DNA from: Treponemataceae bacterium
GTDB taxonomy: Bacteria > Spirochaetota > Spirochaetia > Treponematales > Rectinemataceae
Assembly (NCBI GenBank): GCA_963667725.2
Contig: CAXXHO010000003.1
Location: 1 to 64,000, forward strand
Reading direction: 5' to 3'
Length of the DNA: 64,000 nt
Shown here: in pieces, positions 26,544-30,248 of the stretch
How the letters are laid out: the number at the start of each line of letters is the position of its first letter
Position numbering within the stretch: position 1 is the stretch's first letter
Translations under genes and position numbers: made by a program
The notes under the pieces: model-generated
Databases searched by the model: none
The model's input: the letters and a program-made list of their open reading frames with translations, nothing else
What the model was told of the DNA's origin: nothing

Positions 26544-27044
26544 ATGCCTGGCAGTATGGAATTGAGCGGGAAGCCGGTATCGGAATCCCTTGTGGAAATG
26601 GACGACGTGGTGCAGCCCTCGGATGTGAATCTCTACGGCACGATTTTTGGCGGTCATCTCATGTCCTTGGTGGACAAGGCCGCCGGAATCGCCGCGTTCA
26701 AGCATTCGGGCGAGAGCGTGGTCACCGTATCGGTGGATCAGCTCATATTCAAGAATCCGGCGCCTGTGGGCACTGTCTTGATGATCAGGGCATCGGTGAA
26801 TCGCGTCTTCAATACCTCGATGGAGGTCGGCGTCCGGGTTACGGGCTGGCGGCCGGGTTCCCGGGAAGAAGTGCTGATCTGCCCCGCCTATCTGACTTTC
26901 GTGGCTGTCGGTCCCGATAAAAGACCCATTCAGGTCCGGCCTATCCTTCCCGAGACGCCCGAACAGCTACGCCGTTACCAGCAGGCGGGCATCCGCCGCG
27001 AAGCCCGTCTCTCACTCGCGCGGAGACTTAAGGACCATCGCTAG
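26544..27044 (+). CDS. Acyl-CoA thioesterase (hotdog fold, YciA-like)
   Basis: DVNLYGTIFGGHLMSLVD, VTVSVD, TSMEVGV, TFVAV. Confidence 0.92.
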   Translation: MPGSMELSGKPVSESLVEMDDVVQPSDVNLYGTIFGGHLMSLVDKAAGIAAFKHSGESVVTVSVDQLIFKNPAPVGTVLMIRASVNRVFNTSMEVGVRVTGWRPGSREEVLICPAYLTFVAVGPDKRPIQVRPILPETPEQLRRYQQAGIRREARLSLARRLKDHR

Positions 27045-28257
27045 CCCGGGGCGGTCGAGATGTCTCATTCACCCTGAGCGCGAGGGAGGCGAAGATGGTC
27101 AGCCCCCCGAGGATGAGGAGGGCGGCGTTGAGTGAGAGATCGGCGATCATGCCCACCAGAGGGTAGAGCAGGGCTATAAGGACCCGTTCCAGCATCGAAA
27201 TGCCCGAAAGCACTGTGGCGCGGTTGGAATCCTCGATATGGTCGTTCATGAGGGCTGAAAGCATCGGCGCCCTGAAAAGCCTCAGGTTCGTCACGCCGAA
27301 CATGACGATGAGATCGACGACGATATTCGGGAACAGCCCGGCGCCGATATAGAGCAGGCCAGGCATCAGGGAGGAGAGGAAGAGCGCTCGGGCTATGCCC
27401 ATCTTTTTCTGGATGAAGGGCGTCGTCTGCAGGAGCAGCATGGCGCTGAGGTTGAAGGCCGAGCCGACGAAGCCGAACCAGGCCACGGGCAAGGCGTTCC
27501 GCGTGAGCATGGACTGGTAAAACCAGAACATGAAAAACGTGAGGGCTGAGATGGCCGCGTAATTGAGGCCGAAACCGCGCAGCTCCTTCGTTCTGAATAT
27601 CTGGAGGAAGCCGTCGATTCCATGCCTCAGGAAGTTCTCGCCGCCGCGTTTTTCCATGGTTTCCCTGACGCCGAGGACGATGAGGCCGGATATCCCCAGC
27701 GCCGCGGCCGTGAATACGAACACCAGACCCAGGGCTTCCTTATAGGGAACGATGCCGCTGCCCGCGAACAGGGAGCCCAGGGGAAAGCTTATGAATAGCC
27801 CCGCCGTGCCGGCCGACTCATAGCGGGCGAACACGTTGGCGGTATTTTCGGCGTTCCTGTCGCGCTTTATTACCTCGTAGAGCAGGGCTTTGTCCGCGCC
27901 GCTGACGAGCGTCATGCCCAGGGCGCAGATAAGCTCCGCCACGAGAAGAATCCCGAATGAATGGAATATGCCGAACATGAGGAAGCCTGCCGCGAGAAAA
28001 AGCGATCCCAGGCAGAGGGAGATTTTCCTGCCCCATCGGTCGGCGACGACGCCCGCGGGCACCTCGAGGATCATCATGGCGGCGGAAAACACCATCTCGA
28101 GCGTGAACATCCGGGCATAGCCCATTTCGAGGCGGTGGATATAAAAGGGAACGGCCACCGCCCCGAAAAACTGCAGGTTCTTGAAAAAACTGAAAGCATA
28201 GAGCGCGATTATGCCTTTATTATCCCGCTTCATCCCCAAGCTCTCCATGGCGATCAC
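27028..28257 (-). CDS. MFS transporter
   Basis: EVPAGVVADRWGRK motif A; ~12 TM segments; RATVLS. Confidence 0.9.
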   Translation of the reverse strand: MIAMESLGMKRDNKGIIALYAFSFFKNLQFFGAVAVPFYIHRLEMGYARMFTLEMVFSAAMMILEVPAGVVADRWGRKISLCLGSLFLAAGFLMFGIFHSFGILLVAELICALGMTLVSGADKALLYEVIKRDRNAENTANVFARYESAGTAGLFISFPLGSLFAGSGIVPYKEALGLVFVFTAAALGISGLIVLGVRETMEKRGGENFLRHGIDGFLQIFRTKELRGFGLNYAAISALTFFMFWFYQSMLTRNALPVAWFGFVGSAFNLSAMLLLQTTPFIQKKMGIARALFLSSLMPGLLYIGAGLFPNIVVDLIVMFGVTNLRLFRAPMLSALMNDHIEDSNRATVLSGISMLERVLIALLYPLVGMIADLSLNAALLILGGLTIFASLALRVNETSRPPRASDGP

Positions 28258-29238
28258 TTAGCGATGGACGATGAGGTTGCTGGAATAGGGAATGGCGAGA
28301 TTCGCGATCTTTTTCTTACGGCGCTCGCTGAGCAGCAGAGCCCCGACCACGGAAGCTAAGAGGCTTCCGCTGAATATGCCCATGAATGCCAATGGCAGGT
28401 TCTGGAAGGGCAGATCGACGTTCATGCCGAAGAAACTCGAGATGAGGGTCGGTATCATGAGCACGATAGAAACAATGGTGAGTCGGCGCATCACCCTGTT
28501 GAGATTGTTCGAGATGACGCTCGCGAAGGCATCCATCGTGCCCGTAAGAATCGAGGAATAGATATTGGCCATCTCGATGGCCTGCTTGTTGTCGGTGAGG
28601 ACGTCCTCCAGAAGCTCCTGCTCATCTTCCTTGAAATGGATGAAGGGAGATTTCTGCAGCTTTTCGAGGAGAAGTTCGTTGGTCTTGAGGCTCGTCGTGA
28701 AGTAGACGAGGGATTTCTGGACGGAGAGGAGCTGGACGAGTTCGTTGTTCTTGACTGACTCCTGCAGTTCTCTCTCGATGATGGCCGTCTTCTTGTTGAG
28801 CTCTTTCAGGGCGCGCAGATAGCTCAACGCCGCTCTCCCCATGAGGTTGAGCACGAAGGCGCTTTTGTTTTTCACGCTGAAGTCGCGGATTCTGTGCCCC
28901 GTCAGATCGTCGAGCACGTCGCTGGAACGCTGGCATATGGTGACGATTTTGTCGCCGAAAAGGATGATGCCCACAGGCACGGCGGAATATGTCACTTCCG
29001 AATTCTGGTCGAAGACGGGCAGGCGGACGATGATGGCGGTATATTCGTCTTCCTTTTCGATGCGCGCCTGTTCGTCCTGGTCCATGATGTCGGCGATGAG
29101 TTCAGCCTGGATGCCGAAATCTTTTTCCAGCTTGGCGAGGTCTTCCCTTGTGACATTGCGGGCGTCGACCCAGCAGTCCTTCACGATTTCGCTGCTCTGG
29201 GAAAGCTTCTTGTCGTCTTGAGTCCTGATCGTGATCAT
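28258..29238 (-). CDS. corA: CorA family Mg2+ transporter
   Basis: SNNLNRVMRRLT...PTLISSFFGMN (GMN signature). Confidence 0.95.
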   Translation of the reverse strand: MITIRTQDDKKLSQSSEIVKDCWVDARNVTREDLAKLEKDFGIQAELIADIMDQDEQARIEKEDEYTAIIVRLPVFDQNSEVTYSAVPVGIILFGDKIVTICQRSSDVLDDLTGHRIRDFSVKNKSAFVLNLMGRAALSYLRALKELNKKTAIIERELQESVKNNELVQLLSVQKSLVYFTTSLKTNELLLEKLQKSPFIHFKEDEQELLEDVLTDNKQAIEMANIYSSILTGTMDAFASVISNNLNRVMRRLTIVSIVLMIPTLISSFFGMNVDLPFQNLPLAFMGIFSGSLLASVVGALLLSERRKKKIANLAIPYSSNLIVHR

Positions 29239-29241
29239 TTT

Positions 29242-29276
29242 GGTTTCTCCTTGGGCGGTAAAAACCTGGAGAAACC
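29242..29276 (-). promoter_or_regulatory. Anti-SD/SD hairpin covering the corA ribosome-binding site
   Basis: On the mRNA, GGTTTCTCC (29276-29268) is perfectly complementary to GGAGAAACC (29250-29242), 3 nt before the corA ATG. Confidence 0.7.
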
Positions 29277-29287
29277 GGTGGGAAGGC

Positions 29288-29389
29288 TTAGAGCCGGAAC
29301 CGGTCGCCCGCAGGAAGTGCCGCGAGAGTCATTTTAGTGCTGCAACTATGATAGGGGGTGCTACTACCCCCACCGTCCGGATCGGACAT
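29288..29389 (-). CDS. Putative corA leader peptide (33 aa, MSDPDGGGSSTPYHSCSTKMTLAALPAGDRFRL)
   Basis: AAGGAGG SD 7 nt upstream of ATG; N-terminal D-P-D; lies in the corA 5' region. Confidence 0.65.
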   Translation of the reverse strand: MSDPDGGGSSTPYHSCSTKMTLAALPAGDRFRL

Positions 29390-29471
29390 GGCGCTTCCTC
29401 CTTGGCTCGTTATATGGTCCCCGGAAGGGGATCGGTTCTAGGCACAGTAATAGCAGAAAACCGTCCATCTA

Positions 29472-30248
29472 TCAAGGACAGATCGTCAACTTCCCCTCCA
29501 GAAAATAAAATACGGTACCGAGGTCCTGGAATTTGAGGCTGGCCGCCCTATCGAGGTGAGTGATCATGTCGTTGACGATCACCAGTTTCCCGCCGTTCTC
29601 GATGGTATGCTGGGGCAGGGCAGCCGCGGGGTACACGAGGAGGCTGGATCCCAGCATGATAAGGAGGTCAGCGGCTTCGGCTTCGTCGCGCGCCGCCTTC
29701 AGCGCGTCGGCCGGAAGGTTTTCGCCGAAGAAGGTGATATCGGGCTTGACCGCGGCGCCGCATCTTTCGCAGAGGGGGATGGAGCCGGCGCGGACTATCC
29801 GTGCCGCCTTCTCGAAGGACATCGACCATCCGCAGGCAGGGCAATGGTGGAGGGATGGCGAACCGTGCACTTCGATGACGCGCCGGCTGCCCGCTTTCTG
29901 ATGGAGAAGGTCGATGTTCTGCGTGATGATGGCGGCCAGCAGTCCCCTTCGTTCCAGTTCCGCGAGCGTTCTGTGGACGACCGAAGGCTTTTTCTCGTCC
30001 AGGTTGTATATGAAATCGCGGGTTGCTTCGTAATAAAAGAAGGGATCGCGGCGAAAAATTTCGATGTCGAAGATTTTTTCCGCGTCGACCGTCTTGTAGA
30101 GGCCGTTTTTCCCGCGAAAATCGCTGATGCCGGAGAGGGTACTGACGCCCGCGCCGGTGAAGGCCACGCAGTGGCGGGCAGCCTGGATCATTTCGAAGAA
30201 TGCCTCCAGGTTTTCGGTCGAGTCGGAATCGATGGAAGATGCGTTCAT
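29472..30248 (-). CDS. cobB: NAD-dependent protein deacylase (Sir2 family)
   Basis: TGAGVSTLSGISDFRG, ITQNIDLLH, EVHGS, two CxxC, GSSLLVYPAA. Confidence 0.93.
   Translation of the reverse strand: MNASSIDSDSTENLEAFFEMIQAARHCVAFTGAGVSTLSGISDFRGKNGLYKTVDAEKIFDIEIFRRDPFFYYEATRDFIYNLDEKKPSVVHRTLAELERRGLLAAIITQNIDLLHQKAGSRRVIEVHGSPSLHHCPACGWSMSFEKAARIVRAGSIPLCERCGAAVKPDITFFGENLPADALKAARDEAEAADLLIMLGSSLLVYPAAALPQHTIENGGKLVIVNDMITHLDRAASLKFQDLGTVFYFLEGKLTICP

Follow-up and report, generated by a model that had tools for sequence, protein, structure and literature searches.

Peptide-based sensing of Mg2+ is so far known from enterobacteria, and several of the described systems resemble the leader discussed below. 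In Salmonella, the upstream open reading frame (uORF) mgtQ lies between mgtC and mgtB and acts on the mgtB ribosome-binding site (RBS) through a helix logic (PMC8092293). The uORF corL controls corA through Rho, and loss of the corL start codon raises corA; CorL contains few acidic or Pro residues (PMC11552253). In the case of MgtL, ribosomes drop off at the sequence EPDP (PMC11282234). Among RNA elements, the corA RNA motif in the literature occurs only in Gammaproteobacteria (PMC6429828), the mgtE RNA motif is limited to Thioalkalivibrio (PMC11109978), and in Mycobacterium an M-box controls a uORF associated with a different gene (PMC12810186). Control of corA by a uORF (corL; PMC11552253) and control of a Mg2+-transporter RBS by an acidic uORF (mgtQ; PMC8092293) are already known and are not new. 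Neither the main text and one supplement of PMC8632094 nor the accessible parts of PMC4072509, PMC12421838, PMC13285730 and PMC12810186 describe the leader reported here, and the full-text literature searched, which mostly excludes subscription papers and the original corL paper, contained no account of such a Spirochaetota or Bacillota leader or of the AGU codon.

The window analysed here is a 64,000-nucleotide stretch of DNA from a Treponemataceae bacterium (contig CAXXHO010000003.1, positions 1 to 64,000), in which a transporter gene is preceded by a uORF (Table 1). An earlier note on this DNA had described the uORF with its SD-led start and a 9-bp stem between an anti-SD and the corA Shine-Dalgarno sequence (SD), all of which are present. 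The transporter is assigned to the CorA family by its PF01544 match (187.8 bits) and GMN motif, with Mg2+ as the putative substrate; its score against TIGR00383 is 115.6 bits, below the equivalog cutoff of 200.75, and its closest relatives are from Treponemataceae, Treponema and Spirochaetaceae. The uORF peptide matches no Pfam or NCBIfam family. An Rfam search of the leader returned no family at gathering and only four chance matches at E<=10; the M-box (RF00380), which the earlier note had proposed to exclude by a scan, was not found, and no intrinsic terminator was found. The uORF stop codon is separated from the CorA-family gene by 49 nt. Relatives carry TTGxxx-17-TAxxxT at the position equivalent to that of the window's putative promoter, which is absent from the output of a consensus promoter scan, and the 5' hairpin shows both-sided changes at 3 of 6 pairs in the 12-sequence consensus fold. 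A contig from a sequencing run, its library guessed to be RNA, spans 28200-29426 and can show neither transcription nor its start. The gene for a sirtuin-family deacylase (29472-30248) ends within the putative promoter, and an MFS transporter gene (27028-28257) begins right after the corA stop codon and may therefore be co-regulated with corA. Genes for EttA-family, bL31 and Rho proteins are present in the genome, the bL31 gene immediately downstream of rho (G000:C3:847806-849376). In the tRNA set called by ARAGORN, tRNA-Arg(GCG) is present and tRNA-Arg(ACG) is not, and there are multiple Ala(CGC) and Ser(CGA) calls.

Table 1. Features of the corA leader and gene in the window, in the order of transcription.
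Feature	Position	Strand	Remarks
Putative sigma-70-type promoter, TTGATA-17 nt-TATTAC	29447..29475	-	Assigned by eye
5' hairpin, CCCC-N4-GGGG	29418..29431	-	Just past the putative transcription start; 12-sequence consensus fold
uORF SD, AAGGAGG	29403-29397	-	Read in the sequence
Region 1, uORF SD and spacer	29390..29403	-	Predicted pairing with region 2; 90.7% of cells paired
Leader uORF, 33 aa, unannotated	29288..29389	-	ATG at 29389, TAA at 29288; starts MSDPD
Conserved core, codons 1-10	29360..29389	-	M-S-D-x-D-G-G-G-S(AGU)-S
Small hairpin within the uORF	29354..29371	-	Predicted fold, AGUAGC in the loop
Core AGU codon	29365-29363	-	Overlapped by a -1-frame TAG
Region 2, uORF codons 23-30, switch strand	29299..29323	-	Predicted partner is region 1 or region 3
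Region 3, anti-SD (29276-29268) and flanks	29255..29279	-	Predicted; flanks lengthen the 2:3 helix
Region 4, corA SD	29242..29250	-	9-bp 3:4 stem (29276-29268 with 29250-29242); 96.3% of cells paired, 12 sequences
CorA-family transporter, 326 aa	28258..29238	-	PF01544 domain and GMN motif

The uORF is shared by related bacteria, as the earlier note had expected. From 61 related genomes, 30 corA loci were collected, 29 of them with upstream DNA, and 27 of these 29 have, at the same place, a uORF that is led by an SD and starts in the same way; the remaining two (L016, L017) have a uORF that lacks an acidic residue in the first eight positions and retains AGU. The identical detector finds such a uORF before 54 of 1431 genes of the window's genome, a control that is favourable since the detector was devised after inspecting the first corA set. 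Further corA loci have the leader in 40 of 73 cases (80 loci from further genomes, of which 73 were scorable and non-duplicate; 41 were detected and one was dropped as an evident false match), and mgtE loci in the order have it in 12 of 30, rows L102, L167 and L173 having been removed as evident false matches before these corA and mgtE counts. In a set of 78 loci from metagenomes and two further family loci, the detector marked 30; four rows (L228, L236, L273, L280) were dropped. The genomes are related to each other, so that all these counts overstate independence. Most uORFs are 22-55 aa long, with a median gap to the gene of 56 nt. Across 104 leaders, start codons interchange (96 ATG, 7 GTG, 1 TTG) and Asp is encoded synonymously (119 GAC, 68 GAT), which fits a translated ORF. 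In a genome of the same genus (L029, G002:C12:125433-126415), corA is broken into four pieces by frameshift, which may be an assembly error, and the leader is intact.

A DNA pattern applied to 401 spirochaete genomes gave 23 matches, among which the window-like ones precede corA, two mgtE genes and one mgtA gene, the rest being unrelated. The single leader-bearing mgtA encodes a protein that scores over the MgtA family cutoff, and none of 27 other spirochaete mgtA loci carries the uORF; in the window's genome, it is absent before mgtE, a second corA and two P-type ATPase genes. One genome (G047) contains the leader twice, before mgtA (L129) and before mgtE (L142). The least biased test of the Mg2+ link is a motif-first search of 401 Bacillota genomes. 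Among its first 30 loci, 20 are short ORFs with an in-frame AGU, the seed genome included, and 16 of the 20 precede transporter genes (9 CorA, 4 MgtE, 3 MgtE_N); another precedes an ORF that resembles MgtE_N and has no Pfam match, and for three no gene was found. A second set of 20 loci was picked by eye, and 15 of the 17 that qualified precede genes of the CorA, MgtE or MgtE_N families. The raw pattern count (72 of 401 genomes) was discarded as evidence because a reversed control pattern also matched many genomes. Among 20 corA loci selected for an M-box test, 7 have an M-box immediately upstream (five with a detected uORF), as do 7 of the 20 Bacillota motif loci. At L088, L100, L107, L113, L118, L320, L323, L329-L331 and L333, an M-box is directly followed by an Asp-x-Gly/Asp-Pro-Ser(AGU) uORF; such tandem loci precede corA, mgtE or MgtE_N genes and have the appearance of a two-tier leader. 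The CorA, MgtE and MgtA hosts and the M-box tandems support a link between the leader and Mg2+ transport and, judged from sequence, the uORFs are a leader family that stands before three unrelated types of Mg2+ transporter in two bacterial phyla.

The earlier note had read the peptide as M-x-D/E-P-D/E with Asp-Pro as its conserved unit. The uORF is conserved, but the Pro is not: of the 29 leaders that share the window's type, just 5 have one in residues 2-8. The core is Asp-x-Gly/Pro..Ser, and its near-invariant element is Ser encoded as AGU. Among the 104 leaders, the core codon is AGU in 94, AGC in 6, UCU in 2 and the Asn codon AAU in 2, whereas among the 1767 Ser codons of the genes that follow the first 79 leaders 167 are AGU, and in the window's genome the share of AGU is 5.5%. 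The base after the core AGU is A in 68 of 104 leaders, whichever amino acid (Ser, Ile, Arg, Thr or Lys) the next codon specifies, and the base before the core codon is U in 63 of 104. Over the family as a whole, AGU coincides with a rise in the predicted mean unpaired probability. This codon and base preference, in a mostly unpaired stretch, would also suit an RNA element whose AGUA loop is a site for a protein, a nuclease or a metal, with the peptide sequence secondary; we regard this as most improbable, however, given that every AGU lies in the reading frame set by an SD-led start, that the flanking stems vary between clades and that Rfam has no match. Decoding of AGU by tRNA-Ser(GCU) is a wobble interaction, and AGU is read in this manner in the window's genome because it has one tRNA-Ser(GCU). 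We infer that slow wobble decoding of AGU at low Mg2+ is the sensor.

A second property of the core is a stop codon in the -1 frame within one codon of the Ser, which occurs in 78% of the 104 leaders. Codon shuffles that left the core codon unchanged gave 49% (maximum 61%); no excess is seen further downstream, and the stop is near the core in 22 of 31 loci of the Bacillota set and also in CorL. A destabilized ribosome might shift to the -1 frame at the core; release at the conserved out-of-frame stop would then shorten the uORF at low Mg2+. We consider such slippage quite unlikely: AGU is kept without an adjacent stop (for instance in L013, L056, L061 and L065), no shared slippery sequence is apparent by eye, and the preferred Pro codon of the Bacillota motif, CCU (22 of 31), is also used where it creates no stop, which points to a wider preference for codons ending in U. 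A mechanism based on TrmD and CC[C/U] Pro codons is another candidate sensor. The Bacillota motif has CCU or CCC in 29 of 31 cases, but this mechanism was rejected as a misfit with the spirochaete leaders, which have CCG or no Pro. A +1-frame stop near codon 20 recurs in close relatives with no family-wide excess, was not retained as a signal and may reflect a helix. Leaders of the Sphaerochaeta type (L059, L072, L076, L082) have PLPR after the core, as in MgtL, and the mgtA leader L129 has PLPRR further on. Some mgtE leaders (L155, L164, L169) begin with GTG and have the acidic core at codons 7-16 behind a basic N-terminus. The candidate uORF in the Bacillaceae corA leaders L103 and L106 is of another kind, with Tyr-Ser after EPEPE.

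The four regions listed in Table 1 are predicted to pair in alternative ways. In the consensus fold of 12 close leaders, codons 24-27 pair with the uORF's own SD and the anti-SD:SD stem is closed. When a ribosome is placed at codon 7 and only the RNA downstream of it is folded, codons 23-30 form a long helix with the anti-SD and its flanks. The earlier note had named the competing stem (GACCGGT/ACCGGTT with inner GGCT/AGCC), which is present as part of a longer helix than described, and had missed the pairing with the uORF SD. It had further pointed to CGGTGGG (29375-29369) and CCCACCG (29282-29276); their complementarity is present and holds in 68 of 84 cells, and it was rejected as the main switch because just one anti-SD base is taken. 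The predicted cost of opening the window's corA SD is 3.8 kcal/mol when the 5' end is held and 6.9 for naked RNA; it is 10.3 with a ribosome at the stop codon and 9.7 with a shuffled uORF. Of 104 leaders, 92 were folded and 12 skipped: the native uORF lowers the opening cost relative to shuffles in 77 (3 opposite), and in 60 the early-ribosome state is cheaper to open than the stop state (10 opposite). For window-type leaders the corresponding numbers are 26 and 27 of 28, leaders of the MPD type are less consistent in switching (7 of 18), and new Bacillota loci follow the comparison in 10 of 13 cases. The 3' part of the uORF sequesters its own SD more than shuffles do in 100 of 131 leaders (13 opposite; rows L312 and L353 dropped), the window's own 1:2 margin over its shuffle being below 1 kcal/mol (8.3 vs 7.4). 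The predicted ON state is a less closed state that may depend on co-transcriptional folding, because stem covariation, which the earlier note had proposed to look for in relatives, is not above shuffles for either state in the 12-sequence alignment (136/500 and 60/500), because a first ribosome-mask folding, in which RNA was allowed to pair across the ribosome with a 24-nt target, gave no trend (27 vs 26 of 79), and because the corA SD stays paired at equilibrium in all three states when the full transcript of the window is folded.

We consider it probable that the 33-codon uORF and the four pairing regions form a translational attenuator by which the CorA-family gene is turned on at low Mg2+. 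At low Mg2+, ribosomes would pause on the first nine codons or break off translation there again and again, owing to a short acidic nascent chain with Gly or Pro followed by the wobble-read AGU codon. A ribosome lingering there would hold region 1, block 1:2 pairing and let 2:3 form, so that the corA SD is exposed, whereas pairing of the uORF SD with codons 23-30 (1:2) would leave 3:4 closed and the gene off. At high Mg2+, ribosomes would reach the stop codon, unwind 2:3 and allow 3:4 to close. Under this model, removal of the uORF start codon is expected to lower corA output, as for mgtQ and unlike for corL.

The ribosome-mask folding fits the earlier note in that full translation would be OFF and early arrest ON, but not in its view that abortion as such opens the SD. 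The naked window RNA seems nearer to the OFF state, so that ribosome occupancy rather than drop-off would be needed, because opening costs 6.9 kcal/mol in naked RNA compared with 3.8 with the 5' end held. A drop-off mechanism of the MgtL type, in which low Mg2+ lets acidic residues destabilize the ribosome and the leader left naked is ON, agrees with the finding that 87 of 104 leaders have at least two acidic residues within positions 2-9, with the drop-off described for MgtL and with several close relatives (L002, L003, L007) in which naked RNA is as open as the early state. In 52 of 92 leaders, the window's among them, naked RNA is, however, more closed than RNA in the early state, and in 8 it is more open; Pro is not conserved, L016 and L017 do without early acidic residues and the AGU codon would be left unexplained, and we judge drop-off to be unlikely. 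In the attenuator that we favour, the output is initiation at corA. Alternatively, it could be Rho-dependent transcription termination, with SD occlusion merely feeding termination; the rho gene, the action of corL through Rho (PMC11552253) and the lack of a detected intrinsic terminator would agree with this. It is nevertheless very unlikely in our view, as the median gap between uORF and gene is just 56 nt and the conserved part of this gap is the anti-SD:SD stem.

The earlier note had taken MgtL as the nearest relative, but the closest peptide is CorL. As in CorL/YsgD, the uORF stands before corA and has a D-x-P/G-S(AGU) core: E. coli K-12 corL/ysgD (L295:219-275) encodes D-T-P-S(AGU)-R(AGA) with a -1-frame TAG, and four other enterobacterial corL genes, close kin of it, have an identical D-T-P-S start with AGU followed by A, while no such uORF was seen at two other gammaproteobacterial corA loci. 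Beyond residue 6 no similarity was seen between CorL and the leaders described here, and the folds predicted for the window differ from the three-way junction of the corL leader, the output of which is Rho termination. The spirochaete and Bacillota leaders are possibly kin to CorL. We tentatively put forward, as a reading that we hold to be possible rather than probable, that all three belong to one old, cross-phylum family of Mg2+-sensing leader peptides that sense by decoding. A short Asp-x-Gly/Pro chain and a wobble-read AGU, with an out-of-frame stop beside it, would arrest the ribosome at low Mg2+; the output of the module would have changed, to RBS occlusion or to Rho termination, and so would its place, since it would have passed between genes of the CorA, MgtE, MgtE_N and MgtA types and come to lie behind M-boxes as a second tier.

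MgtL likewise has early acidic residues in the leader peptide of a Mg2+ importer, with full translation being OFF, as is predicted here. It differs in its Pro-rich EPDP without Ser or AGU (NC_000913.3), compared with D-P-D and a non-conserved Pro in the window, and in its position upstream of mgtA and in transcription control through Rho, whereas the window's host is CorA and one mgtA is found elsewhere. By its sequence, the window leader is not a member of the MgtL group. The M-box (RF00380) controls the same transporter families and lies directly upstream of the uORF in several Bacillota loci, but it senses by RNA folding and is absent from the window leader. With more than 130 leaders in two more phyla, a consensus is obtained that points to one synonymous codon, AGU, whose replacement in E. 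coli K-12 corL would be a direct test of the mechanism. The leaders also suggest a way in which spirochaetes that lack an M-box in this leader adjust Mg2+ uptake; in some M-box leaders, a translational second tier may have gone unnoticed.

The layout is closest to that of mgtQ (PMC8092293): both have an acidic short ORF, 1:2 and 3:4 helices that compete with 2:3, a 3:4 helix that hides the RBS of a Mg2+ transporter and, by prediction here, a 2:3 helix favoured by ribosome occupancy. The mgtQ ORF has 8 aa, is intergenic and overlaps region 1, whereas the window's uORF has 33 aa and lies in the 5' leader of corA, with region 1 being the uORF SD and region 2 the 3' third of the uORF; because of the latter, completing uORF translation would unwind the ON helix. 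Unlike mgtQ, the hosts are CorA, MgtE and MgtA genes in other phyla. This mgtQ-like arrangement of alternative helices at a transporter RBS was obtained by prediction with shuffle controls, and the leader, which appears real and conserved, would by these predicted helices work like mgtQ.
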